From positions 588-64,587 of the forward strand of contig JBGSZB010000011.1 in assembly GCA_041750555.1 (NCBI GenBank): 64,000 nt of DNA. The letters run 5' to 3'. This document shows positions 14,105 to 43,155 of the stretch, one piece after another. Each line of letters begins with the position of its first letter. Within the stretch, counting starts at the first letter, position 1. Origin of the DNA: Candidatus Dojkabacteria bacterium. GTDB taxonomy: Bacteria > Patescibacteriota > Dojkabacteria > J137. The notes beneath the pieces are model-generated. The model was not told the DNA's origin and did no database searches. It saw only the letters and a program-made list of their open reading frames with translations. The position numbers and the translations under genes were made by a program.

Positions 14105-15646
14105 CTACTTTTTCTTGGTTAATCTATTCTCTACCTTGTTTTCAAAGTTTTTTAAGGATCTATGTTTTTTATCTCTTTTCTTTTCTTTTCTTTTAAGATC
14201 TCTATCAATAGAGACATATTCTCCAAATAGTTTTAATGATTTTTGTGTTAAATCATATTTATAGAAGAGTATTCCAAGTATTATCGCTATAAAGCCTAAT
14301 GCTATTCTGTTATCTCTATCGTTATCAAATAATGCAGTTTCTGGTAATTCTCCAGGACATACTCCACCTAGTGCATCTTCACATTCACCTGCAGTTACTG
14401 TTGATCCTGCTGGACAACTATCATCTGTTGTTACAAATGATTCACATGTATTACCATCACTTAAACTGGTTGTACATCTATAGCATGTTAAGTTTTGTGA
14501 TGTTGTTACAGGACATGCTCCACCAACACTTTCTTCACAAGCTGATTGAGTTGTACTTCCTGCTGGACATACACTTCCATTTACACTAAATGATTCACAT
14601 TGATCATTATCACTTAATGTATCAGTACATTTATAACAGGTTGTAGTTACACTTTGTACAGGACACGCCCCACCAACAGCTTGAGAACATACTGAATTAG
14701 TTGTATATCCACTAGGACAACTACTTCCATTAATAGTAATACTTTCACAAGTGTTTACATCATCAACTCTATCAGTACATTTATAACAGGTTACTGTATC
14801 TGTAGGTGTTGTTGGAGGGTTACTTGTATCTTGACAATTATTATTATTAGCAGGGTCTCCAATATGACTACAATAGTTTGTACCAGCTCTAGCATCTGCA
14901 TCACTTGGATAGAAATCAACTTGGGCACATCCATTAGGTAAAACACAACCACTACCACTTGAGAAAGTTACACTTGCTCCTTCATCTGCTAGGGTACATT
15001 GATCATCTCCATTTGAATCAAAACTACATTTATATATTGCACAGTAATTACAAGTGGTAGTTGCACCTCCACAAGTTACTCCATTTGCAACATTTGCTCC
15101 ACTTCCTGCGCTACATACAGGATTAGTTGGGCATGTACAACCATCAACATCACTACATGTTGATGTACAACTACTTAATGATGTTCTTGAACCGTCACCT
15201 GTTGTTCCTGATGGACATGATGTATCATATTTACAACCCTTTGAAGTATTATCTCCCGTAGCTGTATTACATCTATACTCCATTCTTTGACCAGTTGGAC
15301 ACCCTTCTCCGCAAGCACCTGAAAAGTCAACACCTTGAGGGCACTTAGTTGTCTGAGTTTCAGTAGGACATTCAGAAGTATTGTACTCGGCACAATTAAC
15401 CACACTACCTCCAGTTACAGCAACACACTTACATACATAGCCTGTTCTATAGCTACCCCCATTTATTGGATGACTTGTATATTGACACTTTCTTCCATAT
15501 GATGCTGGATCACAAGTCTCTGCACTACTATCATCTGGAGCTTGATCTTGAGTTAGTCTTACAGCTATAAATACAGCTACACCACTAAGTATTAATAATA
15601 CTATTACTAATATAATTGAAATTAATCTTTTTCTATTAGGGTTCAT
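14105..15646 (-). CDS. Cysteine-rich cell-surface protein with three ~45-aa Cys repeats and a C-terminal LPETA sorting signal (putative sortase substrate)
   Basis: 513 aa. N-terminal signal/anchor, then a Cys/Thr/Gly/Ser-rich ectodomain with three tandem repeats TCYKCTD..D.C(E)S...NGS.CP.G.TT.S.C....GGACPV. The C-terminus is LPETA, about 10 residues, a hydrophobic helix and a long K/R-rich tail. Confidence 0.6.
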   Translation of the reverse strand: MNPNRKRLISIILVIVLLILSGVAVFIAVRLTQDQAPDDSSAETCDPASYGRKCQYTSHPINGGSYRTGYVCKCVAVTGGSVVNCAEYNTSECPTETQTTKCPQGVDFSGACGEGCPTGQRMEYRCNTATGDNTSKGCKYDTSCPSGTTGDGSRTSLSSCTSTCSDVDGCTCPTNPVCSAGSGANVANGVTCGGATTTCNYCAIYKCSFDSNGDDQCTLADEGASVTFSSGSGCVLPNGCAQVDFYPSDADARAGTNYCSHIGDPANNNNCQDTSNPPTTPTDTVTCYKCTDRVDDVNTCESITINGSSCPSGYTTNSVCSQAVGGACPVQSVTTTCYKCTDTLSDNDQCESFSVNGSVCPAGSTTQSACEESVGGACPVTTSQNLTCYRCTTSLSDGNTCESFVTTDDSCPAGSTVTAGECEDALGGVCPGELPETALFDNDRDNRIALGFIAIILGILFYKYDLTQKSLKLFGEYVSIDRDLKRKEKKRDKKHRSLKNFENKVENRLTKKK

Positions 15647-17001
15647 TTCCTTTTAAATATATCTACTCTGAAGTATAAAGATAATCCTAAGAATATCAAG
15701 AGTATCCCTACAATAATTGCATCTACTCTATCATTAATAATTGCAGTACCAGGTAGTGAGCCACAATCTGCAGGACATGTAATATTAGATTCACTACTAC
15801 CACATATTCCATCTCCACAAACAACAGATGTACCACTTCCAACAACAGTATTTTGACCACAAGCATCTAATAACAAATTAACATTAGTTACTCTACTTCC
15901 AGTACTAGTAGTTAAAAACACAGTATCAATATCTCCACATTGAGATAGTGTATATCCTCCTTGAGGAGCTAATGGTAAACATCTTTGATTAGTAGTATAT
16001 GCTTGTGATAAACAAGACTCTGCACTTACATTATTTGTATTAGGTAGTAAGAAACCACATGTAGAACCAGTTTGACATAATCCAACTTCATCACTACAAG
16101 GAGCTCCACAAGCATTTAAACTTCCACAAGCACAATTAGCTCCTGGAACTGTTTTACCACTAGGACATGCTGCATTTTCACACATACCATTCCTACAGGT
16201 AACTTCAATCCCTGCTGTAGCTGCTGGTTTACAATCTGCAACTGTAGTACATTTACCACCACATACAGATCTAGAATCTACTGTTGTACCACCTCCAGTA
16301 CTACCTTGTATAGCACAACATAAATCTCCACTACTTGAACAACTTCCACTTCCAGTAACTCTACCTACTGATCCACAATTGTTAACGGTTACCCCATTAT
16401 ATGTAGACCCAGGTGTAAAACATGCCCCACTACATGAACCACCTCCACTCGTTGATGTTCCACCACAAGTTACTCCATTATTAATATTTCCACTTGTATT
16501 ACAACCACTAGGACATGTACATCCATCACTATCATTACATGTTGCTGTACAACTAGTTAATGTTGTTCTACCTGATGTACCACCTCCTGTATTAGTAGGA
16601 ACACAACAGACCTTCACCGAACCTTCCTCACAATCTGTACCAGTTAAAGAAGTTTCATTTGTATTACATGCTGATTTACACGATCCACTAAATCCACCGC
16701 AATTCGTAAGAGTACCCTGACACGAGCAAATATAATTTGAGCCTGAAAGACCACCCTTGCAAATTCCTAAGGCACCACTATCTGTAGTACATGTACCACT
16801 TCCAGGAATTTTTCCACCACAACCATTAAATGAAAGTGTAGTTGAACATATTTCAAAACCGGCTCCAGGCTCTTCATCTGCACTACTATCCGTTGGAGAT
16901 TGTTGTAAAGTAACCTGATATGCTACATAAATAGCTATACCACCTAAGATAAGGGTTGCAAATACTAAAATACCTACAATTACATTTCTTCTATTCTTCA
17001 T
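15643..17001 (-). CDS. Cysteine/glycine/threonine-rich cell-surface protein, paralog of the downstream gene, C-terminal LPGTA sorting signal
   Basis: 452 aa. Its N-terminal anchor is homologous to that of the neighbouring protein (…VTLQQSPTDSSADE vs …LTQDQAPDDSSAE). It is extremely Cys/Gly/Thr/Ser rich. C-terminus is ...SLPGTAIINDRVDAIIVGILLIFLGLSLYFRVDIFKRK. Overlaps the downstream paralog by 4 bp. Confidence 0.6.
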   Translation of the reverse strand: MKNRRNVIVGILVFATLILGGIAIYVAYQVTLQQSPTDSSADEEPGAGFEICSTTLSFNGCGGKIPGSGTCTTDSGALGICKGGLSGSNYICSCQGTLTNCGGFSGSCKSACNTNETSLTGTDCEEGSVKVCCVPTNTGGGTSGRTTLTSCTATCNDSDGCTCPSGCNTSGNINNGVTCGGTSTSGGGSCSGACFTPGSTYNGVTVNNCGSVGRVTGSGSCSSSGDLCCAIQGSTGGGTTVDSRSVCGGKCTTVADCKPAATAGIEVTCRNGMCENAACPSGKTVPGANCACGSLNACGAPCSDEVGLCQTGSTCGFLLPNTNNVSAESCLSQAYTTNQRCLPLAPQGGYTLSQCGDIDTVFLTTSTGSRVTNVNLLLDACGQNTVVGSGTSVVCGDGICGSSESNITCPADCGSLPGTAIINDRVDAIIVGILLIFLGLSLYFRVDIFKRK

Positions 17002-20024: not shown

Positions 20025-21083
20025 TTATTTCTCTCTAAACTTATACATTGGTAATGGCTTTTCACCCACCTCAATTCTATAACTATGAAACTTAAGTGTT
20101 GGATGATTAATTAAAATATCGTAACTACCATTTTTTAATTCACCACTGTATTCAAACTTACCATTATCTAATACTTTAAACTTAACTTCTGATTTATCAC
20201 TCTCACTAATTAAAAGAACTTCACAATTACCTACAGGATTATTACTCTTATCTACAACTATACCTTTAATAACTTTAGGAGATTTAACTATGGGAACACC
20301 TAATTTAACATTTACATCACTTTGTGATTGTTGAACCATGTCTTTTCCTTGATTACCTTCATTTACCTTAACATCATTACTCTCTTTAGATGCTTTAATC
20401 TCATGATACAAATCATTCATCTTCCCCATTAATTCTTCTCTAACACCTGGATCTGTAGTTTTTGAAAATTCAAACTTTAATTTCTCAAATTCAGATTTGT
20501 AATCTCTAGTTTCACTTAAATTACTAACTTCATTACTAGGTTGTGTTAATGGATTAGTAGGTAAACTAACTTCATTAAATATACTTTCAAATTTATCATC
20601 AAAGTTTTTAGCCCTTAATTTATCTCCTTCTAAAAAGTCTTCTGCTAAAGATTCCTCATTATCTAATCCTCCTAAATCATTTTCTGCAGTAGTATCCATA
20701 ATACTATCTAGTGCATATTTCTTTTTATTTTTTAAACTAGACACTTTTTCATACTTAGGTACTTTTTTAATATCTTCACTAGTTTTTAAAATATCTGGAG
20801 TTGCCTTTTCTTTAACCCATACATATCTTGGTGCTACTATTAAAGCTTTAATAAAGCCTCCAAACCAAGTACCGAAGTTTGGAATAATTGCCATTAAAAG
20901 ACCAACTGCTATCGCTATAAATATTAGAGGTACTTTAACTATTAAAGGTATTAGAGGAATAAAATATACACCTACACCAACTAAACAACCTATTAATATC
21001 TTACCGAATTGTTTAAGTGTAAAAGCACCAAACAATTTAAATTCTACATCTATAATGTTTTGAGGTACTGGATGTGGTTCCAT
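20025..21083 (-). CDS. Membrane protein with N-terminal TM hairpin and C-terminal carboxypeptidase-regulatory-like/Ig-like beta domain
   Basis: 352 aa. The N-terminus MEPHPVPQNIIDVEFKLFGAFTLKQF is followed by 2-3 TM helices and the C-terminus is ...GIVVDKSNNPVGNCEVLLIS...GSYDILINHPTLKFHSYRIEV. It resembles PrgI-family T4SS membrane proteins, but the match is weak. Confidence 0.35.
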   Translation of the reverse strand: MEPHPVPQNIIDVEFKLFGAFTLKQFGKILIGCLVGVGVYFIPLIPLIVKVPLIFIAIAVGLLMAIIPNFGTWFGGFIKALIVAPRYVWVKEKATPDILKTSEDIKKVPKYEKVSSLKNKKKYALDSIMDTTAENDLGGLDNEESLAEDFLEGDKLRAKNFDDKFESIFNEVSLPTNPLTQPSNEVSNLSETRDYKSEFEKLKFEFSKTTDPGVREELMGKMNDLYHEIKASKESNDVKVNEGNQGKDMVQQSQSDVNVKLGVPIVKSPKVIKGIVVDKSNNPVGNCEVLLISESDKSEVKFKVLDNGKFEYSGELKNGSYDILINHPTLKFHSYRIEVGEKPLPMYKFREK

Positions 21084-28632: not shown

Positions 28633-28688
28633 AATTAAAGTATATCAAATATTTATTGAATATATATATCGGGGTATAATTAAAAATT

Positions 28689-28770
28689 GCTGATGTGGCG
28701 GAATTGGTATACGCGCTAGCTTGAGGTGTTAGTCCCGTAAGGGGTGCAGGTTCGAGTCCTGTCATCAGCA
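28689..28770 (+). tRNA. tRNA-Leu (anticodon GAG), class II; CCA not encoded
   Basis: GCTGATGTGGCGGAATTGGTATACGCGCTAGCTTGAGGTGTTAGTCCCGTAAGGGGTGCAGGTTCGAGTCCTGTCATCAGCA, with anticodon loop TTGAGGT, a long variable arm and A73. A TATAAT-like -10 element sits about 10 nt upstream. Confidence 0.85.
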
Positions 28771-28779
28771 AAAATCAGA

Positions 28780-30009
28780 TTAATAATATATTGAAGAATT
28801 CTTTAGGGTAATATGCAGTTCAATTAGTCCTGGGACCCACTTTCCATCCTCTAATATCCAACATAAGTCAAATTGCAATTCACAGATATCTCCTATAATT
28901 TTATTCGCAGAAGTAAGACTAGATGCATAATGATGAAAGCCATCGGCTAAAGATTCATTTAATTGGCTCCAAAATTCTTCTTTCATTTCTGGTGTAAAAT
29001 TATTTATTCTAAAAAACTCATCAAACATCTTATCAGCATCTATAGTGTAACCCTTTTCAGGATCTGCTAAATACGTTAAGTTACCAAAATAAGATGATCC
29101 ACCAACTTTAGTATACAGATTTTGTATTCTAGATATCTCTGGTACTTGTAGGTTACCTTCTATTACATGTCTAGTTTCAAAAGTATGACCGTCCAAATAA
29201 AAAATATTTTCAAATCTCTTTTCTATCATCCCAGGATCAATAGACAATCCTTTTGCTTTTTGTGCTGGTCCACTATAGTCAAAGTCTAAAAAATGAATTG
29301 AGGATATGGCACTTAATAAAAATATCTCTTCAAGTGCTCCTCTAGCTAGCGCAATAGGAATCCTATATTTTTCTACATTCGTGTTTTCATCCTTTGTTTT
29401 TGACAAGGTATAAGGTTCATCAATATCTAAATCTCCAGTTGAGGATCTGTCTCTAAAGAATTTGATTAAGGGAGGTAAATGTCTTGGATTATCTACATAA
29501 TTATTTATCATAGTTAACACCAAGTCTTGACCATCTCTTTCTAAGAAAAAGATTCCAATTCCAAGAGCACTATATGCTGGTTTAAACACTAAGGGTAATT
29601 CTATCCGACTATCTAATATTTTTTCAACAATAACTTTAATATCTAAGGCTTCTTGCTCTATTGTTTCATATAAACTTAATTTATTATTAACTGAGAAATC
29701 GTCTAAATCCTCTGGAAGTCTTTGCGACTCTTGGGATCTTTGTAAATAATCTAAATATCTTCTAAAGGTACTATCTTCATATCCTATAGGGTAAAAATAT
29801 TGTGGTTGTCTAAATGGCCCCCCTTTCATTATATGACGCCCTACATATTTATTACTTAAAAATTCATTTACAGACCTTCTTAAGTCAACTAAGTTAATTT
29901 CCCTCCTCCAATCAACAACCCTTATTCCCCTATAAATACGAATACTTTCTGCAGTATCTCTTCTAATAACAGGTAGTGTAGCTTCTAAGATATTTTTTGG
30001 CTGATTCAT
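28780..30009 (-). CDS. Hypothetical protein, possibly ATP-grasp-like
   Basis: 409 aa. The segment ELPLVFKPAYSALGIGIFFLER is loosely reminiscent of the ATP-grasp (RimK-like) K-P...G..G.G motif. Codons appear more G/C-rich than in neighbours. Its stop is 10 nt from the tRNA-Leu 3' end. Confidence 0.35.
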   Translation of the reverse strand: MNQPKNILEATLPVIRRDTAESIRIYRGIRVVDWRREINLVDLRRSVNEFLSNKYVGRHIMKGGPFRQPQYFYPIGYEDSTFRRYLDYLQRSQESQRLPEDLDDFSVNNKLSLYETIEQEALDIKVIVEKILDSRIELPLVFKPAYSALGIGIFFLERDGQDLVLTMINNYVDNPRHLPPLIKFFRDRSSTGDLDIDEPYTLSKTKDENTNVEKYRIPIALARGALEEIFLLSAISSIHFLDFDYSGPAQKAKGLSIDPGMIEKRFENIFYLDGHTFETRHVIEGNLQVPEISRIQNLYTKVGGSSYFGNLTYLADPEKGYTIDADKMFDEFFRINNFTPEMKEEFWSQLNESLADGFHHYASSLTSANKIIGDICELQFDLCWILEDGKWVPGLIELHITLKNSSIYY

Positions 30010-31361: not shown

Positions 31362-33044
31362 TTAAACCAGTTCAGTTGGACTTATAGCTAATTCTACTTC
31401 ACCTGTTTTATCTGCCATACCCTCTAATGGAATAGTAAAGTAAAATGTTGATCCTTTATTCTCCTCACTCTCAAACCACATTCTACCGTGATATGTATTA
31501 ACAATAAGTTTAACAACATATAAGCCTAAACCTGTACCATTAATTTTTTTATCAGCTACATTTTTAGCTCTAAAGTTTTTAGAAAATACTTTATCTTGTT
31601 GATCCTTAGGAATACCAAAACCTGAGTCTTTAACTGAGATTATTATGTTTTTATCATCTTTAGTGTAATCAACAATAATTGGTGCGTTTTCAGGAGAATA
31701 TTTAATAGCATTTGTAATTAAATTGGTAAGAATAAGTCTAATTAAACTTGGATCAATATGTAAATTTAAATAATCACTTTTATTAAATTGTATTCTACTT
31801 ACATCAATTTTATATGATTGTGCAGCATCTGAAATAACATCTTTAATTAAATTATTTAATTCAATATCTTTAGTACTTACATATAATCTTCCAAATTCCA
31901 TTCTAGTAATATTTAATAAGCTGTCTACATATGCAATTAAACTTTTATTTGAAGCGATTACTGTATCCATAGTAACTTTACCTTCACTACTTAATTTATC
32001 ATATACTTCATCTTTAATTAATTCTAAATTCCAACTAATACTAGTCATTGGTGTTTTTAATTGATGAGCAGTAACTGATACAAAATCAGTTTTCATTTGA
32101 TCACTTTTTTTAGCTAATGTAATATCTTCTTCTGTACCAATAAACCCTATTAAATCCTTTTTACTATCAAATATTGGAGATATAACGCTTCTTGCAGTAT
32201 ATAACTCACCATTCTTTCTTTTGTTAACTAACTCTCCTTTAAAAACCTCTTTTTTTTCTTTAATAATATGCCACATCTCCTGATAAAACTCTTTAGGCAT
32301 TTGGCCTCCCCAAAGACTAGGATTTTTACCTAAAACTTCTTGTTGAGTATATCCTGTAATTCTAGTAACAGAGGGATTAGCAAAAATAATTTTACCATCT
32401 AAATCAGTAATAACTATATGGTTAAATGAACTTAGTACTGCGAGTTTAAATACATCTGAATTAGCTAAATCTATTAAACTTTTTACTTTGTATACTAAAC
32501 CTTTATTAGTTTCAATAACATTATCTAACCTCTTTTTATTAACATCACTTAGGTTTTGATATGCCTCATTTTTTATCTCTTCTAAATCTTTAGTATTTAA
32601 TGTAATAGGAGTTTCAACTTCTTTAGCAGTATGTGTTAAAAAATCACTTGTGCTGCTTCCTGCAGCTTTAGCTAAGGTAACATCTTCTTCTGTACTTAAA
32701 AACCCTATTAAAGTGCCATTAGAATCAATTAAAGGAGTAATTACTACCCTCGCATTATATATCTCACCATTCTTTCTTTTATTTATTAATTCACCTTTAA
32801 ATACTTGTCTTTTATTTTTAATTGTATCCCATAAATTTAAGTAATATTCAGAGGGCATCTGTCTTCCCCAAAGTCTTGGTGTTTGTCCAATCATTTCTTC
32901 CTTAGAATACCCTGTAATTCTCTCTGCAGATGGATTTGCAAATACAATTTTGCCATCTAGATCAGTAATTACTACATGGTTAAAAATATCGTTAACAGCT
33001 ATTTGAAATATTGAAGGATTTATATTACTACTAGAGAGATTCAT
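31362..33044 (-). CDS. Cytoplasmic sensor histidine kinase with two PAS domains
   Basis: Duplicated PAS blocks (ITDLDGKI(V/I)FANPS..ITGY...E(M/V)(I/L)G). H-box TAHQLKTPMTSI and HATPase_c motifs NLITNAIKYS, DSGFGIP, GTGLGL. No TM segments. Confidence 0.8.
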   Translation of the reverse strand: MNLSSSNINPSIFQIAVNDIFNHVVITDLDGKIVFANPSAERITGYSKEEMIGQTPRLWGRQMPSEYYLNLWDTIKNKRQVFKGELINKRKNGEIYNARVVITPLIDSNGTLIGFLSTEEDVTLAKAAGSSTSDFLTHTAKEVETPITLNTKDLEEIKNEAYQNLSDVNKKRLDNVIETNKGLVYKVKSLIDLANSDVFKLAVLSSFNHIVITDLDGKIIFANPSVTRITGYTQQEVLGKNPSLWGGQMPKEFYQEMWHIIKEKKEVFKGELVNKRKNGELYTARSVISPIFDSKKDLIGFIGTEEDITLAKKSDQMKTDFVSVTAHQLKTPMTSISWNLELIKDEVYDKLSSEGKVTMDTVIASNKSLIAYVDSLLNITRMEFGRLYVSTKDIELNNLIKDVISDAAQSYKIDVSRIQFNKSDYLNLHIDPSLIRLILTNLITNAIKYSPENAPIIVDYTKDDKNIIISVKDSGFGIPKDQQDKVFSKNFRAKNVADKKINGTGLGLYVVKLIVNTYHGRMWFESEENKGSTFYFTIPLEGMADKTGEVELAISPTELV

Positions 33045-33181
33045 ATTATATTATTAAAAATACAACTTTATTATCACATATCAAAAATTAATTTGGAACT
33101 TAATTTATTAAATTCTTTACTTATGTTTTAACAAAACCTATCATTATTTAAGCACTTTTCTTATCTTTAAAATTTAACTTA

Positions 33182-33757
33182 ATGAAACATAAAGAGAATT
33201 TAGATACTGTTTTAGTTGCATTAATATCAAGTATTTATGTAACTTTTTGTTACGTTAAATACGTTATTTTACTTCCTTCAACTATATATACTTTAATATT
33301 TTTTGTACTAATTACATTTTTAGGATTAGTTTTAATATATTTATCGTATAAAGATATATACTCCATGGAAGTACCATCTCATTTACTATACATTCTATTA
33401 GGTGTATTTGTAGCTATAAATATATTATTACTTCCCTTCGATTTTAGTTTAACTTTTGGTAATTTATACTTTTTCCCAATTAACAATCTATTTATAGGAT
33501 TAATTTGTGGAGGTATTGCTCTATTAATATATCTATTAACTAAAAGAAAAGGTTTAGGAGAAGCTGACATCTATTTATTCACATTAATGGGATTAGTGTT
33601 AGGTAGTAATAAAACAATATTAGGTTTCTATTTAACACTAATTTCAGCAAGTATTTACTCAATATATATATTAATTAAAATTAAAAAGTTTAAAGAAGTT
33701 AAAATACCCCTAATTCCATTTATCACTTATGGAATACTAGCTAGTTTAATACTTTAA
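33182..33757 (+). CDS. pilD: Prepilin peptidase (A24 family), short form without the N-terminal zinc-finger/methyltransferase domain
   Basis: 191 aa, polytopic, with Asp-containing loops (KDIYSME ... GEADIYLF) consistent with an A24 aspartyl peptidase. It is convergent with the pilin operon. Confidence 0.5.
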   Translation: MKHKENLDTVLVALISSIYVTFCYVKYVILLPSTIYTLIFFVLITFLGLVLIYLSYKDIYSMEVPSHLLYILLGVFVAINILLLPFDFSLTFGNLYFFPINNLFIGLICGGIALLIYLLTKRKGLGEADIYLFTLMGLVLGSNKTILGFYLTLISASIYSIYILIKIKKFKEVKIPLIPFITYGILASLIL

Positions 33758-33847
33758 TACCTTCATCCAATACAAAACGTTAGAAGATTATAGTAATCTT
33801 TACCGATTTTGAGATATTAAAGAGTAATTAATTAATCTTAAGAATAA

Positions 33848-33874
33848 CAAATCCCCCAATTGCTTGGGGGATTT
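33848..33874. terminator. Bidirectional Rho-independent terminator between convergent pilD and the pilin operon
   Basis: AAATCCCCCAA-TTGC-TTGGGGGATTT is a perfect 11-bp stem with a 4-nt loop, followed by a T-run on the plus strand and by GTTATTCTT on the minus strand. Confidence 0.6.
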
Positions 33875-33897
33875 TAAGTCTAATTAAAATAATGAAC

Positions 33898-34356
33898 TTA
33901 TCTTTTAACAGATATTGTTGCACTATTCTCAGCATCTGGAGATGCTACTGTTACTCTTCCATTAGATTCTGAACAAATAGTATAACCTGTATCTAATGCA
34001 GTTCCAGTTGAAGGATCTTGAGGAATTCCAACAATATATTCAGGTACCAAGTCCGTTGCTAAATTTAAATTACCTACATCTGTTCCAATAGCTGTAACTG
34101 TTGGACAAGTTGAAATTGTTCCTAAATCTCCTAATGTATTTCCATCTTCAGATGTAAATTGAGTTACAGCATTTAATATTTGTAATACATCAGAACTTCT
34201 TTGAGTATTTCTAGCATCAGCAAAGTTTTTAGCAGGATTAATTGCAATAAAAGTAATTGCAGCTAAGACAGCAATAAGACCAACTACCACTAATACCTCA
34301 ATAAGAGTGAATCCCTTCTTAACTTGATCCATAATTTTTTTTATAATATTTAACAT
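33898..34356 (-). CDS. Type IV (ComGC/PilA-like) major pilin
   Basis: Class III signal MLNIIKKIMDQVKKG|FTLIEVLVVVGLIAVLAAI with Glu+5. 152 aa. It is the last gene of the pilus operon and is followed by the terminator. Confidence 0.75.
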   Translation of the reverse strand: MLNIIKKIMDQVKKGFTLIEVLVVVGLIAVLAAITFIAINPAKNFADARNTQRSSDVLQILNAVTQFTSEDGNTLGDLGTISTCPTVTAIGTDVGNLNLATDLVPEYIVGIPQDPSTGTALDTGYTICSESNGRVTVASPDAENSATISVKR

Positions 34357-34394
34357 TTTTATTAAATCATAATTTATAAAAGATTAAAAGTTTT

Positions 34395-34814
34395 TTATAC
34401 TTCATTCCAACTTTGAATTACCATATCTGGATTTATTGTTTGAATCGTTATATCTATTCTAAAGTAATATCCTTCTTTATCTGAACTTACTTGAAATGAT
34501 CTATTAGTATTCCCACTTCCACTAATTGTTCCAATGACACAATCTCCAAAACTTAAATTTCTTGTTTCATTACCAATATATGTATCACTAATCTTTAATT
34601 CATTTAGAGCTATCTCTGCACAACTTTCTGCTAATGCTTTTGATTGTTTACCTTTTTCAATTGAAGATATTGCAACTATATTTTCAATATTAATAGATAA
34701 TGAACTATATACTACTAATAATCCTACAACTGAGATAATTATTACACTTACTAATGTAACAAAACCTCTCTTTTGTTTGTTATTTAATTTTTTATCTAAA
34801 GTATGCACTTCCAT
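34395..34814 (-). CDS. Minor pilin-like protein (ComGG/PilX-like), lacks Glu+5
   Basis: N-terminus ...NKQKRGFVTLVSVIIISVVGLLVVYSS is prepilin-like with a hydrophobic helix but without the conserved E5. Confidence 0.4.
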   Translation of the reverse strand: MEVHTLDKKLNNKQKRGFVTLVSVIIISVVGLLVVYSSLSINIENIVAISSIEKGKQSKALAESCAEIALNELKISDTYIGNETRNLSFGDCVIGTISGSGNTNRSFQVSSDKEGYYFRIDITIQTINPDMVIQSWNEV

Positions 34815-35310
34815 AAAATGTTTTTGAATAATTTAAATCTGATCTATTATCTGGATTAACATGGGTTAGAATAAATTCGTAATGGATTACTTCATTTAAA
34901 CCAGTTGGTGTTAAATTTTTAAAAGTTAAGTTACTAGCTATTACATTACTTGAGGTTAATGATATTGCAGGGTTAGCGCCTTCTGTAATTTGAATAGCTC
35001 CTGAAGTAATATTTACAACTACAGGATTTATTACTCCATTAACAAGAGATAAAGAATTAGCACTATTACCTGCTGTTGGAGAATTAATACTATCACTTGA
35101 TCTGAAATAGTTATTTAAATAATCAACTACAATAGCTCCATTTTGATTAACTTCATTAATTGTTAATGTTTTATTCTGACTCTCTACAATTGCTGTTATA
35201 AAGCCAATAAATGATAATAAAACAACACTTACTAAAGATATATATAGTAGGGATTCAATAAGAGTAAATCCTTTAATTTTCTTTTTTAAACTTATTCTAT
35301 TTTTTATCAT
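34792..35310 (-). CDS. Type IV minor pilin
   Basis: N-terminus MIKNRISLKKKIKG|FTLIESLLYISLVSVVLL. Confidence 0.6.
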   Translation of the reverse strand: MIKNRISLKKKIKGFTLIESLLYISLVSVVLLSFIGFITAIVESQNKTLTINEVNQNGAIVVDYLNNYFRSSDSINSPTAGNSANSLSLVNGVINPVVVNITSGAIQITEGANPAISLTSSNVIASNLTFKNLTPTGLNEVIHYEFILTHVNPDNRSDLNYSKTFYGSAYFR

Positions 35311-35320
35311 TTAATTTCTT

Positions 35321-36763
35321 TTATTGTTCATTTATTCTTAAAAATTCAGCTGAGTTACTAGAGAATGCAACATATGATTTATCTCTATCATAGTCATATA
35401 CAACGCCTGATGCAGTTGATGACAAATTCAGTTCTCCTCTTATGGTTAAGTCTGATGGGTCAGAAATATTAATCGTTGTAAATTCTCTTGGACCTGAGTC
35501 AAGAGCCAGGAAAGCAATAGTTCCTGTAGGGTTAATATCTATATCGTTAACATCATCATCAACATCTAGACTATCTAAAAACGTAGGAGAAAGAGGATTT
35601 GTTACATCAATAGAATATATAATTTCATCCTCACAACCTAAGTAAACCGTATTTGAATAATATGCTACAGTTAAACAATTAGAATTCCCTGGCTTGTCAT
35701 ATGATGCTACTTCGTTTGGATTAGCCTTATCACTTACATCATAAACTACCAGTTCCTCTGAATTACTCGAAGTGGAAACATACGCATAATTTCCACTTAC
35801 AACTACTTCATACATTGTTCCCCCAGAATAATTATCTGAACCAATAAATGTTGGTGCAATGTTTGGGTTATTAACTTGAACGATAAAAAATTCATCACCA
35901 CCACCTGCCGAAGATCTTACAAAATATACATAGTTTGAAGAATCAATAAAAACTCCATTTGCATCATGATTACTACTAGCATTGTAAGTAGATGACATAG
36001 TTGGGTTAGATGGACTAGATAAATTAAATATTTGTAGCTCTGAAGAATTACTACTAGATGCAATAGCTCCAAAGTTTCCATTAGGAGATACTGCAATATT
36101 TATTGGTGCAGAAGTTATCGTTTGAGAATTAGTTACACTTAAAGCTCCATCAACATCAATTGTTAAAAAATTAGGAGATCCTCCATTTCTAATAATATAT
36201 GAATAATCATTAATATATGTAATCTTAGTTCCCCCTCCATTATTTAATAAATTAAAACTATCTGCTAGGGTTGGATTTGTCCAATAATCTAAAATTACTG
36301 TTCTTAACCAATTAGTAAAATAACTAGATATTACTACACTATTATTTGCACTAAAAAACGATGGCCAAGTTACAGTTGAAGTAACTAACTTAGTTTCAGA
36401 ATCAACTGTTGAAATATCAACACTTCTAACATACTCTCCATTTAAATCAGATGATCCACTAGTTACCCAATTACTTCCTGCTAAACTTAATCCATAACTA
36501 CCATCTGTTAAGTTTGAATAATCAATATCTCTAATACTTCTAATTGCTTCTAATCCCTCTTCAGCTAAAAATATAGCCCCTGTCCTATAACTACTTAATT
36601 CTGAATTTTGAATAGATACAACTAGTCCTGAAGCTAAACCTAAACTCACTATTCCAAATAGTGAAATTGATAATATTACTTCAACTAAAGAAAATCCTTT
36701 TTTATTTCTTCTTACTTTTTTTAAGTTTAATCCTTTTAGAATTTTTAAAACTTTAATTCTCAT
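35321..36763 (-). CDS. Prepilin fused to an LVIVD-repeat beta-propeller domain (candidate pilus-tip adhesin)
   Basis: 480 aa. N-terminus ...RRNKKG|FSLVEVILSISLFGIVSLGLASG carries the class III signal with Glu+5. The C-terminal ~350 aa contain repeated ...SGNYAYVSTSSNSEELVVYDVSDKANP..., ...VYLGCEDEIIYSIDVTNPLSP..., ...IAFLALDSGPREFTTINISDPSDL... blocks matching the LVIVD repeat consensus. Confidence 0.6.
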   Translation of the reverse strand: MRIKVLKILKGLNLKKVRRNKKGFSLVEVILSISLFGIVSLGLASGLVVSIQNSELSSYRTGAIFLAEEGLEAIRSIRDIDYSNLTDGSYGLSLAGSNWVTSGSSDLNGEYVRSVDISTVDSETKLVTSTVTWPSFFSANNSVVISSYFTNWLRTVILDYWTNPTLADSFNLLNNGGGTKITYINDYSYIIRNGGSPNFLTIDVDGALSVTNSQTITSAPINIAVSPNGNFGAIASSSNSSELQIFNLSSPSNPTMSSTYNASSNHDANGVFIDSSNYVYFVRSSAGGGDEFFIVQVNNPNIAPTFIGSDNYSGGTMYEVVVSGNYAYVSTSSNSEELVVYDVSDKANPNEVASYDKPGNSNCLTVAYYSNTVYLGCEDEIIYSIDVTNPLSPTFLDSLDVDDDVNDIDINPTGTIAFLALDSGPREFTTINISDPSDLTIRGELNLSSTASGVVYDYDRDKSYVAFSSNSAEFLRINEQ

Positions 36764-36802
36764 TATTTAATATACTTATCTATTAACTCTATAAATTTTC
36801 AA

Positions 36803-37225
36803 TTAATAATCAACAATACCTAATGAATTAATTGTAATAACATCACTATTTACCTCTCCATTAACATTAATAGTTGCACTTGTATTTGGAATACCACTAA
36901 ATTTAACAAAATTAACTTCATTATTACCACTAAAGGATACTCCATCAAAAGAATATACTTGATCAAGAGTTACATCCCTTGATACATAATCATTCCCACT
37001 ATAAATTGTTACACTGTTTCCACTAAGATATACTCCCCAATTAGAATCATTTTTTTGTGATCGAGCCAAAATATTTGCACTTCTAATTGAAGTAATTGTA
37101 AGGGTTGTTGCATTCTCTACTTCAGATCTATATAGAAAGGAATTAAAAAATGGTACTGAGAATCCAGCTATTATGGAAACTAATGCAATTGATAACAATA
37201 CTTCTACTAGTGTAAATCCTTTCAT
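36803..37225 (-). CDS. Type IV minor pilin / pseudopilin
   Basis: N-terminus MKG|FTLVEVLLSIALVSIIAGFSVPFF. 140 aa. Confidence 0.65.
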   Translation of the reverse strand: MKGFTLVEVLLSIALVSIIAGFSVPFFNSFLYRSEVENATTLTITSIRSANILARSQKNDSNWGVYLSGNSVTIYSGNDYVSRDVTLDQVYSFDGVSFSGNNEVNFVKFSGIPNTSATINVNGEVNSDVITINSLGIVDY

Positions 37226-37239
37226 ATTTTATTTACTAA

Positions 37240-38391
37240 TTAATTAGTTTGAACAGTTCTACCTCTTGCTGCATCATTTATATTTCCAACTAAATTATAT
37301 ATTGGAAGAATAATAGATAGGGCTACAAATGCTACTCCTAACCATACAATAATTAGTAATATAGGTTCTATTAAAACACTTAAGTTCTTTAAAGTATTCT
37401 CATTTTTTAATTCATAAACCTCCCCTATCTTTGAAAGAGATTTACTTAGTGACCCAGATTTCTCTGAAGAAATTAATAACTGTCTAGAGTAAGGTGGTAA
37501 GACATGCCCTATATATTTATATTTATCAACAATCTGACTAAAGGTATACCCCATTTCTAATTGAGATTTCATAAACTCATAAAAAACTTTATACCTTTTA
37601 TACACAGTTGAAGATATTAATAAATCCATAGCATTTAATAATGGATAACCAGTTTGTAATAGAGAACCTAATAAAAATCCAAATCTAGCTACTTCTACTT
37701 CTGTTAACATTCTTCCTAATAGTGGAATTCTAAACATAATTTCTTGACCAATGTGTTTACTTCTTTTAAATATAAAGAGAAAAAAGTATATAATTCCAAA
37801 AACAATAAAGATTAGTGGAATAACTATACCCCCATATGCATCTAGAAAATCTCCTAAACTAATTAATGCTTTAGTAACCCCTGGTAATTCAATGTTTAAT
37901 CCTTTATACACTGATGTTATTCTAGGTAATACAAAAAGTATCATTGAAAACCCTACAATAAAGATTAGTATTAAAACTAATACAGGATACAGACTAGCTG
38001 ATCTTATCTTGTTTTTAAACTCTCTCTCCTTTTGCATTTGAGATAAAACTATTAATGTATTTTCTTTAAGTTTTCCACTTCTTTCTCCAATTTGAATTAC
38101 AGATAAAAGATGACTAGGTAAAAGGTTTACTCTTTCTATACTTTTCCAAATACTACTTCCATCTTTAATATCTTTTTCTATTGATTCAACTGTATGTTGT
38201 AAACTTTTAGAAGATGATTCTGCTTTTAATACTTGAAGAGATGAAGATATATCTAAATCTGATGAAATAATTAAACCAAAATTCTCAAAAAATATCTCTT
38301 TTTCTTTTTGAGTTAACCTTTGTTTAAATAGAAACTCTAATATTTTATTTCTCTTTTTGATAGCCATAGATTTTTCTAGAATCAACTTCAC
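37240..38391 (-). CDS. pilC: Type IV pilus / type II secretion platform protein PilC/ComGB (GspF family)
   Basis: 383 aa with two T2SSF-like repeats and three TM segments. Directly downstream of the PilB-like ATPase; the annotated start overlaps pilB, so the true start may be an internal Met. Confidence 0.8.
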   Translation of the reverse strand: MKLILEKSMAIKKRNKILEFLFKQRLTQKEKEIFFENFGLIISSDLDISSSLQVLKAESSSKSLQHTVESIEKDIKDGSSIWKSIERVNLLPSHLLSVIQIGERSGKLKENTLIVLSQMQKEREFKNKIRSASLYPVLVLILIFIVGFSMILFVLPRITSVYKGLNIELPGVTKALISLGDFLDAYGGIVIPLIFIVFGIIYFFLFIFKRSKHIGQEIMFRIPLLGRMLTEVEVARFGFLLGSLLQTGYPLLNAMDLLISSTVYKRYKVFYEFMKSQLEMGYTFSQIVDKYKYIGHVLPPYSRQLLISSEKSGSLSKSLSKIGEVYELKNENTLKNLSVLIEPILLIIVWLGVAFVALSIILPIYNLVGNINDAARGRTVQTN

Positions 38392-40021
38392 TTGGAGCTA
38401 CTCTTATTAATTCATCAATATCAATTAAACCCTCTTTTACCTTTTCTATACCATCATCAAACATAGTTCTTGCTCCATTCTTTGTAGCTAGTTCTCTAAC
38501 TTCTAAACTTGATGGATTTTTTAAAATTACATTCTTAATATCTTCAGTTATGTATATTAATTCAAATAGTCCGATTCTTCCTTTATATCCTGTGTTATTA
38601 CATGCAGAACATCCTTTACCTTTAAATAGCGTTAATTGATCTTTATTAAAATACTTTTTAGGATCTGGGAAAAACTTTTCTAATTCATTAAAGCTTGTTT
38701 CATAACTATATCTACAGGTAGAACATATTCTTCTGGATAATCTTTGAGCAATTATTAAATTTAAGGTTGAAGCGAGTAAGAATGGCTCTACCCCCATATC
38801 TAAAAGTCTAGGGATAACTGTTGCTGCATCATTTGCATGAAATGTAGATAGCATTAAGTGTCCTGTAAGGGATGCATTTATTGCTATTTCAGAAGTCTCT
38901 CTATCTCTAATTTCTCCAACTAAAATTACATCTGGATCTTGTCTAACAATTGATCTTAAACCTCTAGCAAATGTTACTTCAGTTTCTAGATTAACTTGAA
39001 TTTGATTAACTCCATCAATTTTATATTCTACTGGGTCTTCAATTGTTGTTATATTAATCTTTGGATCTTTAAGTTTTTTAATTACAGAATACAAAGTTGT
39101 AGTTTTACCACTTCCTGTAGGTCCAACAGTTAATATCATTCCAAATGGTCTGCTGGAAGCTTCTTCTAATATTTTATGATCAGCTTCTCCTAAACCTAAA
39201 TCATTTAAACTTAGAGTTCTAATGTATCTAGATAAAATTCTAATAACTACATTCTGTCCATTAATTGTAGGTGCAATTGATATTCTTAAGTCAATTCCAT
39301 TATCTCCTGTTTTAACTCTAATTGCTCCATCTTGAGATGAAAAATGATCATCTATTCTTAAATTAGAAAGTACTTTAACTCTGTTTATTAAGTTTTCAAA
39401 GATATCTCTTGAAGTACTACCAACCTCATGCATAACTCCATCTATTCTAAATCTAATATCTACAGATTCTTCTTGTGGTTCGAAATGAATATCACTTGCT
39501 TCTAAATCTAGAGCTTCTTTTAATACTTCGTTAAATATTTCAGAAGCTACTCCGTATTCTTTTCTCTCTATAGTTTGAAATTTTTTTTCAAGAGATACTT
39601 TATATATATTTAGTACTTCATTCACTACATTGTTATCAGAATATCCAACCTCAATTGTTTTACCTTTAAATACTTCTTTAGCTTTCAATTTAATATCTTC
39701 TAAATATTCTACTTTTGAAGTTGTTAATAGAAATCTTTTTGGAGTTTCTTTTACAAATACACAGTTGTATCTTCTAGCAAATTTCTCAGGTAATCTTAAA
39801 ACATCTTCATTAGATGGTTTAGATACTTCTAAGTCAATAAATCTAACATTGTTTTCTTCTGCAATAGCTTCTAATACAAGTTTTCTAGTTAATAGCTCTT
39901 TTTCAATTAATGTATTAATTATCTCTTCATTGGATCTACCTTCTAAGCCTTTTAAATCAGACTCTTCAATGTAGTTATGTTTAATTAAATACGTTATTAA
40001 GTTTTTATCACTTAGATCCAT
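38345..40021 (-). CDS. pilB: Type IV pilus assembly ATPase PilB/ComGA (GspE family)
   Basis: N-terminal GSPII-like domain. Walker A GPTGSGKTT, Asp box, Walker B ILVGEIRD, His box, and the tetracysteine motif CSTC...CSAC. Confidence 0.9.
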   Translation of the reverse strand: MDLSDKNLITYLIKHNYIEESDLKGLEGRSNEEIINTLIEKELLTRKLVLEAIAEENNVRFIDLEVSKPSNEDVLRLPEKFARRYNCVFVKETPKRFLLTTSKVEYLEDIKLKAKEVFKGKTIEVGYSDNNVVNEVLNIYKVSLEKKFQTIERKEYGVASEIFNEVLKEALDLEASDIHFEPQEESVDIRFRIDGVMHEVGSTSRDIFENLINRVKVLSNLRIDDHFSSQDGAIRVKTGDNGIDLRISIAPTINGQNVVIRILSRYIRTLSLNDLGLGEADHKILEEASSRPFGMILTVGPTGSGKTTTLYSVIKKLKDPKINITTIEDPVEYKIDGVNQIQVNLETEVTFARGLRSIVRQDPDVILVGEIRDRETSEIAINASLTGHLMLSTFHANDAATVIPRLLDMGVEPFLLASTLNLIIAQRLSRRICSTCRYSYETSFNELEKFFPDPKKYFNKDQLTLFKGKGCSACNNTGYKGRIGLFELIYITEDIKNVILKNPSSLEVRELATKNGARTMFDDGIEKVKEGLIDIDELIRVAPSEVDSRKIYGYQKEK

Positions 40022-40547
40022 TTTTACTTATTAATTCAAAAATAGTGGTTACCATTTTAGCGAGTGGAGTACTCCCTTTGTTTATATACTCAACTCCATA
40101 TGATATTGCCTTTTCTCTATCTTCTGGTTGACTTAAACTAGTTGCAACTAATATATTTAATTTTTTACCTTGTTTTTTTAATTCATCTAATACTTCAAAG
40201 CCACCCATTTCAGGCATTACAATATCTAATACAATTAAGTTGTATTTATTACTTTTTAAAAATTCTAGGGCTTCTAAACCATTAGCTGCTGTATCAACAT
40301 ATACTCCTAGACTATTAAGTTTTAATTTTAATACTCTAGATAATGCTTTTTCATCATCTACTACTAATACCCTGTATTTAAATTCTTTAGGTTTTTCAAT
40401 TACAACCTTTTCCCTAGATTCAACTGGTTTAACTTCAGGTGTTTTAACTTCAGTATCCAAAGATTCTGTTTCAACTGGTGTAACTTCTTTAGGTGGTTGA
40501 TTAGCCTTATCTCCAAATTTAGAAAATATTAATTTAGGTGGCTCCAC
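40008..40547 (-). CDS. Stand-alone response-regulator receiver (CheY-like REC) with a Pro/Glu/Lys/Val-rich N-terminal extension
   Basis: REC signature ...RVLVVDDEKALSRVLKLKL...LIVLDIVMPEMGGFEVL...LVATSL.. with no output domain. Overlaps the pilB start by 14 bp. Confidence 0.75.
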   Translation of the reverse strand: MEPPKLIFSKFGDKANQPPKEVTPVETESLDTEVKTPEVKPVESREKVVIEKPKEFKYRVLVVDDEKALSRVLKLKLNSLGVYVDTAANGLEALEFLKSNKYNLIVLDIVMPEMGGFEVLDELKKQGKKLNILVATSLSQPEDREKAISYGVEYINKGSTPLAKMVTTIFELISKNGSK

Positions 40548-40704: not shown

Positions 40705-41247
40705 ATGAACAAAAACTATTTATACATTCTAGTTACAGTATTTGTATTATCTTTTGGGGTAATAGCAATAATGCTAATCGTTGAGAATGAAAACAATAGA
40801 ATATTAAGAGTAGATAATGATTCAAAAGATGTTATTTCAATGAATGATAGTGCAGATAATACAGTAGATGATCCAGAACAAGATAACGGTAGTGATGATA
40901 TTAAAGGTGAAGAGTATGTAGATAATGGAAGTAAATATCAAGAGTTTTCTGTTAGTAAATTAATTGCAAATAAGGATAAGAAGCAAATATTGTTTTACCA
41001 TGCATCATGGTGTCCTACGTGTAAAATATTAAATGACAACTTAAATAGTAATTTAGTGAGCATCCCAAGTGATGTAGTAATATATAGAGTGGATTATGAT
41101 GATACTCAATATAATCAAATGAAAAGAGATCATGGTATAACATATCAACATACCCTAGTTTATGTTAATGAAAATGGAGAATTAATTGATAAATGGGCAG
41201 GAAGTTTAAATGTTGATGAGGTAATTGATAAATTAAATAATGTATAA
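40705..41247 (+). CDS. Membrane-anchored thioredoxin-like thiol:disulfide oxidoreductase
   Basis: N-terminal TM anchor and a Trx fold with active site WCPTC (…FYHASWCPTCKIL…). Confidence 0.6.
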   Translation: MNKNYLYILVTVFVLSFGVIAIMLIVENENNRILRVDNDSKDVISMNDSADNTVDDPEQDNGSDDIKGEEYVDNGSKYQEFSVSKLIANKDKKQILFYHASWCPTCKILNDNLNSNLVSIPSDVVIYRVDYDDTQYNQMKRDHGITYQHTLVYVNENGELIDKWAGSLNVDEVIDKLNNV

Positions 41248-41254
41248 TCAATAA

Positions 41255-41698
41255 ATGACTTTAAAGAAATCTTCACTTAAAAAATATGGTGTAATTACAA
41301 TAGTTAGTATTGGTTTACTTACGTTAATATTAGTTGTATCTCCATTTTTACAAAACCTATTAAAAGTTAATAATTCACTACCATATGATGTAGCAACTTA
41401 TGTTGAATACAAACAAGATCAGAAGTTTTTAAATGATAAGAATGTTTTATTCTTTAAAGCTAATTGGTGTGGAACTTGTCATGTAGCTGAAACTAATATA
41501 TTAAATAGTTTAAGTAGTATTCCAAAAACTCTAACTATATATTCGCTTGATTTTGAAAATAGTAAGAATAATGATTTAAAAAAGAAATATGGAGTAACTA
41601 CACAACATACATTTGTACAGGTAGATAGAAATGGTAATTTAATTAAAAAATGGGAATTAAGTTATACAGTTAATGAAATTTTAGAGCAGTTAGTTTAG
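41255..41698 (+). CDS. Membrane-anchored thioredoxin-like thiol:disulfide oxidoreductase (paralog of the upstream gene)
   Basis: N-terminal TM anchor and active site WCGTC (…[13 protein letters not shown]…). Confidence 0.6.
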
Positions 41699-42563: not shown

Positions 42564-42884
42564 ATGAAGAAAAAGAAAATGATTAAAACATCTAAGTTTC
42601 AAGTTGTATTACCTACTGAGGTTTTAGAAAAAAGTTATAACAAAGCCTTAGGGTTAGGTTTTAACTCTGTACAAGATATGGTTAGAGTATTTTTAGTAAG
42701 TGTTACTAAAAACAATATTGATTTATCGTTCAAGGAGGATCCACTTAGCGAGAAAATATCTCCTGAATATGAAGCTTTTTTAAATAAAAGATTAGAAGAA
42801 ACCTTAAAAGCTATTGAGGATGGGACTGCATATAGCGCAAATAGTGGAGAAGAGTTAATTAAGATTCTTGATTCCGATGATTAA
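42564..42884 (+). CDS. Putative antitoxin of the RelE/ParE-type TA pair
   Basis: 106 aa. It overlaps the downstream toxin-like ORF by 17 bp, as in classic type II TA modules. No strong family motif. Confidence 0.4.
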   Translation: MKKKKMIKTSKFQVVLPTEVLEKSYNKALGLGFNSVQDMVRVFLVSVTKNNIDLSFKEDPLSEKISPEYEAFLNKRLEETLKAIEDGTAYSANSGEELIKILDSDD

Positions 42885-43155
42885 GAAAGTTTATCTACAT
42901 AAAAAATTTAAAGAGTCATACAAGAAAAGAGGTTTTAAGGAAAACGAATACATCAAATCATTAATTTCATATGTTTCAAATTTATTAATATATAATCTTA
43001 ATGATAAAGCTTTAAGAGTACATGATTTAAAAGGGAGTATGAAAGGAAAAAAGTCCCTAAGCTTAACAGATGATATTAGAATAATATTTATTGAAACTGA
43101 AACCCAATATATATTTCTAGATATTGGGTCTCACAGTGATGTATATAATCCTTAA
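42868..43155 (+). CDS. RelE/ParE (YafQ-like) family toxin
   Basis: 95 aa. ...RVHDLKGSMKGKKSLSLTDDIRIIFIE...FLDIGSHSDVY matches the RelE/ParE consensus H.L.G...G..........R.I.... Confidence 0.55.
   Translation: MIPMIKKVYLHKKFKESYKKRGFKENEYIKSLISYVSNLLIYNLNDKALRVHDLKGSMKGKKSLSLTDDIRIIFIETETQYIFLDIGSHSDVYNP

Follow-up and report, generated by a model that had tools for sequence, protein, structure and literature searches.

A type IV pilus operon of a Dojkabacteria bacterium and its probable two-component system

Introduction

Type IV pili (T4P) belong to the few gene sets enriched in the Candidate Phyla Radiation (CPR, or Patescibacteria) whose necessity for life as an epibiont has been demonstrated, and the locus described here raises the question of whether the activity of such a pilus is controlled by a two-component system of its own. 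The sequence studied is a 64-kb stretch of DNA, hereafter called the window, from Candidatus Dojkabacteria bacterium (assembly GCA_041750555.1, contig JBGSZB010000011.1), with a G+C content of about 27% and the standard genetic code 11; all negative results given for the window are limited to these 64 kb. On its minus strand, from position 40547 to position 33898, the genes for a stand-alone receiver (REC), the PilB-type extension ATPase, the platform protein PilC, four minor pilins and a major pilin follow one another. With a probability of roughly 0.6, the region corresponds to the kind of T4P operon usual in Patescibacteria/CPR, with a two-component system of its own beside it, and the identity of the gene cluster as a type IV pilus system is close to certain.

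A first-pass annotation of the window had distinguished a pilus operon headed by a receiver gene, a convergent prepilin peptidase and a neighbouring PAS kinase, and each of these elements was found in its place by the listing of open reading frames (ORFs) and by profile searches. Domains were assigned from Pfam and NCBIfam profiles, and the comparison sample consisted of the best 80 related loci, in which ORFs were called and subsequently searched by phmmer with ten proteins of the window. The window PilB shares 44-52% identity with the PilBs of metagenome-assembled genomes of Microgenomates, Parcubacteria, Saccharibacteria, Peregrinibacteria/Peribacteria, Gracilibacteria and Dojkabacteria, and the sequences place the origin of the operon in the Patescibacteria/CPR. 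Taken as a gene cluster, the locus is unremarkable, as hundreds of public genomes already contain members of this family.

Conservation of the Receiver Gene and of Its Link to pilB

The dominant order in the 80 related loci reads PilB, PilC and then the counterparts of the 140-, 480-, 172-, 139- and 152-amino acid (aa) pilins of the window, sometimes with a histidine kinase next, the positions of the 172- and 139-aa pilins being swapped in the Peribacteria. Since the succession REC-PilB-PilC-pilins on one strand, as first annotated, recurs in most of these loci, the arrangement is not a product of chance. Among the 76 loci whose sequence extends far enough ahead of pilB, 59 have a single-domain REC gene as the immediately preceding gene in the same orientation, and in 43 of these 59 loci the two genes either overlap or stand at most 25 nucleotides (nt) apart. 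In the window, REC ends (stop codon 40008-40010) 14 nt past the start of pilB at 40021, and the overlap pointed out in the first-pass annotation can be read directly from the sequence (ATGGATCTAAGTGA).

The pilB-adjacent receivers form, on the basis of their sequences, a recognizable orthologous family. A motif [ST]xLxQxxD located after strand beta-4 occurs in 58 out of 62 pilB-adjacent RECs, compared to 10 out of 29 other RECs from the same loci. Eight of these ten motif-bearing, non-adjacent RECs come from loci devoid of an adjacent REC, which suggests that they are slightly displaced orthologues, so that about 67 of the 76 loci would carry the gene. In addition, one locus (L010) possesses a paralogous second PilB which also has an overlapping REC, located downstream in this case.

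The REC protein of the window (Table 1) consists of a receiver domain spanning residues 59-157, preceded by about 58 residues of low complexity, rich in Pro, Glu, Val and Lys; no output domain was found by the Pfam scan. The alignment shows all the residues associated with a functional receiver, namely the acidic pair D64/D65, the phospho-acceptor D108, T136 and K157, among which D65, D108 and K157 are invariant and S/T136 is kept in 62 of the 63 aligned orthologues. Judged by these residues, REC is a canonical, phosphorylatable receiver.

Two related loci depart from this arrangement. In a relative from the Uhrbacteria (L005), a second and shorter pilus operon (1716-7782), comprising a 442-aa PilB devoid of the N-terminal domain, PilC and pilins, and no REC, occurs directly upstream of the main one; a full-length PilD (A24_N plus A24) is encoded between both operons on the opposite strand, and a kinase together with a motif-bearing REC is placed after the main operon. 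The closest relative contig, L082 (Logan SRR34411018), displays about 80% nucleotide identity and the same flanking synteny. Comparison of its positions 13220-13747 with positions 31654-36992 of the window reveals a clean 5.3-kb deletion, extending from the middle of the 140-aa pilin gene to the C-terminal part of the kinase gene, which takes out the genes for four pilins and pilD together with the kinase sensor, leaving an in-frame 175-aa pilin-HATPase_c chimera. The deletion may reflect a genuine loss, variation within the population or an error of assembly.

The Flanking Histidine Kinase

The REC protein and the histidine kinase listed in Table 1 are the sole representatives of their kinds in the window. 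As already annotated, the kinase located beside the operon is a cytoplasmic protein with two PAS domains, followed by HisKA and HATPase_c domains; its H-box (SVTAHQLKTP) contains the expected histidine and no transmembrane segment is present. The protein is built as an internal tandem duplication, in which a PAS domain and a degenerate DHp domain are followed by a PAS, HisKA and HATPase_c unit. A lysine occupies the position of the phospho-acceptor histidine in the first half (residues ~17-195), the second PAS domain is near-identical to the first, and the HisKA and HATPase_c domains of the second half are intact.

Kinases homologous over their PAS, HisKA and HATPase domains occur within 2.5 kb after the last pilin gene in half of the assessable loci (21 out of 42), and just upstream of REC/pilB in 10 further loci. 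Of the 80 related loci, 37, about half, have a histidine kinase beside the operon, and depending on the locus, the sensor part consists of PAS domains only, of a dCache domain with HAMP, or of a MASE3 domain. Because both proteins form the only kinase/receiver pair of the window and because histidine kinases flank the operon in relatives, the kinase is the probable partner of REC. As far as the sequences tell, the linkage between receiver, pilus and kinase is kept over a very deep radiation, that of the CPR lineages.

The PilB-PilC Motor

The PilB of the window exhibits an N-terminal MshEN-like domain, the Walker A motif GPTGSGKTT and a C-terminal tetra-Cys motif, and these features identify a hexameric extension ATPase of the PilB/GspE class. 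It aligns from end to end with the PilB model TIGR02538, with a score of 469 bits that does not reach the equivalog cut-off of 675.65, and scores 476 bits on the GspE model. Its closest relatives in the PDB are the Geobacter PilB (5zfr/5tsg), GspE and the Thermus PilF, the PilB/GspE matches reaching an E value of 1e-104. PilC, with its two T2SSF domains, corresponds to the polytopic platform protein of the PilC/GspF type. Its true start is likely the ATG codon at 38367, which gives a protein of 375 residues whose gene overlaps the end of pilB; the PilC of L082 is called at 375 residues.

Neither blastp nor tblastn with PilB found a PilB/PilT paralogue in the 64 kb, and no PilM, PilN or PilO was recognized in the window upon inspection of the other ORFs by eye and scanning of ten ORFs of unknown function, which agrees with the absence of these genes noted at the outset. 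Clustering of the 539 unassigned ORFs that flank the operon in the 80 loci did not yield any widely recurrent family of the PilM/N/O kind; the recurrent clusters correspond to kinase sensor domains, NMT1-type binding proteins, PilD (in Peribacteria), SmpB, RecR and similar proteins. A PilT-like ATPase occurs near the operon in a single one of the 80 loci (L008), two genes upstream of REC. However, a "minimal pilus" is not to be concluded from the sequence of the window, since surveys of the CPR report pilT and pilM homologues in most of its phyla, and the label is overstated for this cluster.

Pilins and the Propeller Pilin

Four of the five pilins (140, 480, 172 and 152 aa) carry the prepilin motif K-G-F-[ST]-L-[IV]-E of class III signal peptides, for which an A24 peptidase is encoded nearby. 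The fifth one, of 139 aa, has a hydrophobic N-terminus G-F-V-T-L-V-S devoid of Glu5, and its gene overlaps the preceding 172-aa pilin gene by 23 nt. No match to this protein was found in Pfam, NCBIfam or the PDB; phmmer recovered 63 orthologous ORFs from this position in the related loci. The positions of the 140- and 172-aa pilins are also kept in the related loci. From weak similarities and position, the four minor pilins are inferred to represent the FimU/GspH, PilV/GspI, PilW/GspJ and PilX/GspK core set, and such sets form a priming or tip complex in other systems.

The probable major pilin, of 152 aa, is the richest of the set in Gly, Ala, Ser and Thr (34.9% in total), and its matches in the PDB are the N-terminal helices of the Geobacter PilA and of PilE; tandem paralogues occur at its position in related loci. 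A single Cys pair is found in each of the 152-aa (Cys84-Cys128), 139-aa (Cys65 and Cys92) and 480-aa pilins.

The 480-aa pilin is made of an N-terminal helix (residues 26-77), a head (88-150) and a C-terminal beta-propeller (165-478). Its AlphaFold2 model, built from 44 full-length homologues sharing 24-39% identity, has a mean predicted local distance difference test score (pLDDT) of 90.7. The propeller is called seven-bladed because its Foldseek matches are generic seven-bladed WD40 and G-beta propellers, with TM scores to the target of about 0.75-0.83; among the 50 best matches listed, only such generic folds were found, without any more specific structural relative, and neither PilY1 nor the modular pilins of Streptococcus sanguinis appeared. 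The Saccharibacteria strain TM7x needs PilX2, a minor pilin bearing a seven-bladed propeller, for normal host binding and competition (PMC12206443), which makes a similar role plausible for the window protein. By this analogy, the 480-aa pilin is probably a tip adhesin that would mediate adhesion to a host cell or a surface, and it represents a candidate for host recognition.

Prepilin Peptidase and Terminator

The convergent prepilin peptidase gene lies on the plus strand, facing the minus-strand operon, and encodes a short protein as annotated. This PilD is restricted to the A24 aspartic-protease core and retains the G-x-G-x-x-D motif; the alignment shows that it is devoid of the Cys-rich N-terminal A24_N_bact domain of other CPR PilDs, and since this domain is missing, it probably cleaves prepilins without N-methylating them. 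When used as a phmmer probe, it gave no match in the 80 loci, whose PilDs, identified by Pfam, are longer and of the bifunctional type.

The strong bidirectional terminator common to the operon and to pilD was confirmed by terminator scanning and folding. The hairpin is located 24 nt past the major pilin gene and 92 nt past pilD, with T-rich tails on both sides; its folding energies on the two strands are -18.7 and -17.6 kcal/mol (z -4.7 and -3.9), and none of 200 shuffled sequences equalled them. Transcription from REC through the major pilin gene would yield a single mRNA ending at this hairpin.

Table 1. Features of the pilus locus in the window, with their coordinates, strand and supporting evidence.
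Feature	Coordinates	Strand	Evidence
Cytoplasmic histidine kinase, 560 aa	31362-33044	-	PAS_9 twice, HisKA E 4e-12, HATPase_c E 4e-26
Short prepilin peptidase (PilD), 191 aa	33182-33757	+	Peptidase_A24 E 4e-10, above the Pfam cut-off
Bidirectional intrinsic terminator hairpin, 11-bp stem, 5 G-C pairs	33849-33874	both	Terminator scan and folding
Probable major pilin, 152 aa, signal KKG/FTLIEV	33898-34356	-	N_methyl E 2.5e-7
Minor pilin 4, 139 aa, PilX/GspK/ComGG-like position	34395-34814	-	Position, N-terminus
Minor pilin 3, 172 aa, PilW/ComGF-like	34792-35310	-	N_methyl E 1.4e-4; weak ComGD, ComGE and ComGF matches
Minor pilin 2, modular, 480 aa, PilV-like	35321-36763	-	N_methyl, LVIVD repeats, PilV TIGR02523 E 1e-4
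Minor pilin 1, 140 aa, GspH/FimU/ComGD-like, leader MKG/FTLVE	36803-37225	-	N_methyl E 1.5e-5; weak ComGD and GspH matches
PilC/GspF platform protein	37240-38391	-	Two T2SSF domains, E 1.1e-37; GspF E 4.9e-51
PilB-type pilus extension ATPase, 558 aa	38345-40021	-	T2SSE E 7.5e-121
REC, single-domain response regulator, 179 aa	40008-40547	-	Response_reg as only Pfam domain, E 2e-22

Alternative Explanations

The first-pass annotation had called the cluster ComG-like or archaellum-like and minimal. The archaellum part of this comparison is to be abandoned, as the FlaI model gives 66.6 bits on PilB for a cut-off of 550. The ComG part holds for the order ATPase, platform protein, pilins, and fails on the proteins themselves: PilB is full-length, the ComGA model reaches 251 bits on it (cut-off 300) and covers only residues 165-429, the ComGB model reaches 118 bits on PilC (cut-off 240), and the first pilin gene is GspH/ComGD-like instead of ComGC, the probable major pilin being encoded last. 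From the sequences, these labels reflect a surface resemblance. A true ComG-type competence pseudopilus, minimal and devoid of PilT and PilMNO, dedicated to DNA uptake together with ComEC rather than to adhesion or motility, would account for the order of the ATPase, platform and five pilins, for the absence of PilT/PilMNO from the window and from most of the 80 loci, and for the weak ComGD, ComGE and ComGF matches of the minor pilins, in CPR bacteria, which are naturally competent and encode ComEC (PMC10187176). Yet both motor proteins stay below the ComG cut-offs and score higher on the PilB/GspE and GspF models, PilB keeps its N-terminal domain, the major pilin comes last, the 480-aa propeller pilin suggests adhesion, most CPR phyla are reported to have pilT and pilM, and Southlakia requires its T4P genes but can dispense with comEC (PMC10187176); this explanation is accordingly quite improbable. 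Even further from what is observed is a pseudopilus of the type II secretion kind, pushing proteins across the envelope without forming an external pilus. The Gsp models (GspE, GspF and GspH) equal or exceed the PilB and PilC models in score and the minor pilins resemble the H-I-J-K quartet, but neither a secretin nor GspC/L/M was found in the window, CPR cells have been described with surface T4P and homologous systems make pili, and both the tandem paralogues of the major pilin and the adhesin-like propeller pilin fit an exposed fibre; a secretion pseudopilus is thus very improbable.

Within a genuine T4P system, the function of the receiver is the more delicate issue. The phosphorylation-controlled pilus activity first suggested from the coupling of REC to PilB gains support from the conservation of REC upstream of pilB, from its invariant residues and from the presence of the kinase in about half of the loci, and the two-component system probably controls this pilus. 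The kinase would phosphorylate REC at Asp108 in response to an intracellular cue sensed by its PAS domains; because REC is devoid of an output domain, the phosphorylated protein would act by protein-protein contact, most likely on PilB, and would change the ATPase activity of PilB or its recruitment to PilC, thus gating pilus extension. The conserved overlap and adjacency of both genes favour PilB as the target, and EmvR, a single-domain regulator of Xanthomonas oryzae, binds PilB and lowers its ATPase activity in a manner that depends on the phospho-acceptor Asp (PMC11973254). By this analogy, a direct action of REC on PilB is a tentative proposal, to which we give slightly less than even odds. 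REC might otherwise be simply co-expressed with the pilus genes, as a phosphate sink, as one branch of a one-kinase/two-regulator pathway, or as a regulator directed at another target such as the retraction ATPase PilT, PilC or a polarity/localization factor, as proposed for PilG/PilH. A second REC beside the kinase in several loci, the absence of REC-PilB fusions among the best matches searched, and the view of PilH as a phosphate sink, with no direct interaction of PilG/PilH with PilB reported (PMC11656802), all speak in favour of such a role, which conflicts with the single REC and single kinase of the window, with an adjacency that concerns pilB specifically, often with overlap, in 59 of 76 loci and recurs with the PilB paralogue of L010, and with the near-absence of PilT in the vicinity throughout the 80 loci. 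We regard it as unlikely.

Several other observations weigh against phosphorylation control of PilB by this receiver. Roughly half of the related loci have no such kinase, a second REC stands beside the kinase in several loci (e.g., L019, L022, L030, L034, L049 and L062), and in the window the kinase is cut off from the operon by the terminator and by the oppositely oriented pilD. Among the best 120 matches to a chimeric query, a search of limited sensitivity, no protein combined Response_reg and T2SSE domains. The closest relative L082 has lost its pilins, pilD and the kinase sensor, yet its REC, PilB and PilC are intact, which implies either that the pilus set is dispensable there or that these three proteins serve other pilins. 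Among solved structures, the REC profile turned up generic receivers only (RR468, CheY, OmpR-family) and not PilG/PilH. The link between REC and PilB is proposed here from sequence comparison. Finally, the REC start is a GTG codon without an obvious ribosome-binding site, so that both the start and the N-terminal extension (40395-40547) are uncertain. The public gene call likewise gives 179 residues; a relative with a 72% identical REC (P0002) has a protein of 144 residues in total, with a shorter extension, and the extension is the part least conserved with L082 (a 144-residue protein). The true start may be internal, at TTG codon 30 or at ATT codon 50, which is preceded by AGGGAAAAGG. The disordered N- or C-terminal tails of RECs from other lineages are unrelated to this extension.

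Significance of a Probable Receiver-Controlled Pilus

The CPR pilus papers (PMC12206443/PMC11623550, PMC9894109, PMC10187176) make no mention of a response regulator, receiver or kinase associated with pil genes, and full-text literature searches for a link between CPR/Patescibacteria pili and two-component systems gave nothing relevant; the association of receiver, kinase and pilus across the CPR thus appears undescribed in the searchable literature. In the supplementary table of the TM7x work, locus one runs from TM7x_00415 to TM7x_00475 and the gene directly upstream of pilB1, TM7x_00430, is not listed; by its position, it may be a REC orthologue.

The idea has a wider form, in which REC is an ancient, CPR-wide phospho-switch dedicated to the extension motor and fed by kinases whose sensors (PAS, Cache, MASE3) have been swapped from lineage to lineage; it is possible, with odds somewhat below even. 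If it were true, obligate epibionts would time the extension of their host-finding and host-binding pili through REC, by means of a direct kinase-to-motor circuit without c-di-GMP or chemosensory arrays, and this circuit would probably include TM7x_00430, the unnamed gene upstream of pilB1. A phosphorylatable receiver, tied to pilB in roughly 80-90% of the related loci and frequently accompanied by a kinase of the same operon, provides a concrete hypothesis for a host-seeking switch, and one that is testable since Saccharibacteria are now genetically tractable.

Other Features of the Window

Genes for membrane-anchored thioredoxin-like proteins occur at 40705-41247, 41255-41698 and 58474-58929, with the motifs WCPTC, WCGTC and WCGSC, respectively. 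The first two (40705-41698) are arranged divergently beside the pilus operon, an adjacency kept in L082. Their participation in the formation of pilin disulfides was considered and dropped, as none of the 80 loci other than L082 has a homologue.

Two adjacent genes (14105-15646 and 15643-17001) encode large proteins rich in Cys, Gly, Ser and Thr, with an N-terminal membrane anchor, a C-terminal hydrophobic segment and no Pfam match. They form the only stretch of raised G+C content in the window (0.34, compared to about 0.27) and may be surface or S-layer-like proteins. The product of 20025-21083 consists of a PrgI-family N-terminus, of the VirB2/TrbC-like type known from monoderm conjugation or type IV secretion systems, fused to a carboxypeptidase-regulatory-like beta-sandwich; no other type IV secretion gene was recognized near it.

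A 409-aa ORF without family match (28780-30009) lies beside the tRNA-Leu gene at 28688-28771, and is replaced in L082 by a HEPN_LA2681 protein and a 247-aa ORF, so that the segment looks like a small variable island by a tRNA gene. Between rplU and thrS, a pair of small overlapping genes (42564-43155), the L082 counterpart of which gives a weak YafQ_toxin match, resembles a toxin-antitoxin module whose toxin is of the YafQ/RelE type. The window also contains a bacterial class A RNase P RNA (59636-60022, 112.5 bits) and three tRNAs, Leu-TAA, Asp-GTC and Leu-GAG.

Comparison with Known Systems

The T4P of Saccharibacteria and other CPR bacteria (T4P-1 and T4P-2 of TM7x, TM7i, Southlakia epibionticum) resemble the system of the window in the PilB/PilC motor, the five pilins and PilD (PMC12206443, PMC9894109, PMC10187176), and also in the seven-bladed propeller minor pilin (PilX2 of TM7x) and in pilins enriched in Gly, Ala, Ser and Thr. 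Locus one of TM7x comprises pilMNO, the unnamed TM7x_00430, pilB, pilT, pilC, pilA, pilD and minor pilins. In contrast, the window possesses neither pilT nor pilMNO in the vicinity, its major pilin comes last, and its pilD is short and convergent. The Pam pili presented in a preprint as a novel pilus system in CPR, which are assembled by donor-strand exchange, belong to an unrelated system.

With the ComG systems of Bacillus and Streptococcus (comGA-GG), the window shares a compact ATPase-platform-pilin operon in a cell devoid of outer membrane, a pilin-like protein without Glu5 at the end of the minor set (ComGG-like), and a prepilin peptidase encoded apart. ComGA, however, is devoid of the N-terminal domain that the window PilB possesses, the major pilin ComGC is encoded by the first pilin gene of comG and by the last one of the window, and comG contains neither a receiver gene nor a large modular pilin.

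The modular pilins of S. sanguinis (PilB with a vWA domain, PilC with a lectin domain) and PilY1 of the type IVa pili (T4aP) likewise present an adhesive module by or with the minor-pilin complex. The C-terminal domain of PilY1 is also a beta-propeller, whereas the propeller of the window is an LVIVD-repeat, WD40-like seven-bladed structure fused directly to a PilV-like pilin.

As regards the control of the motor, PilG/PilH of the Pil-Chp system of Pseudomonas and PixG/PixH (PatA-type) of Synechocystis are CheY-like proteins which act post-translationally on the activity or localization of the T4P motor. They differ in being the outputs of CheA-type chemosensory arrays, the PixG type having in addition a PATAN domain, whereas the window combines a classical HisKA kinase with a plain REC and contains no Che genes. 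EmvR is likewise a stand-alone receiver with the canonical Asp and Thr, and acts on PilB under a sensor kinase (PMC11973254). It is encoded by an orphan gene located outside the pilB operon, in a diderm T4aP system subject to c-di-GMP/FimX/PilZ control, and the comparison showed no sequence relationship between it and the window REC beyond the REC fold. By analogy of function, EmvR is nevertheless the closest precedent for a receiver such as REC acting on PilB, PilG/PilH and PixG/PixH being looser analogues.

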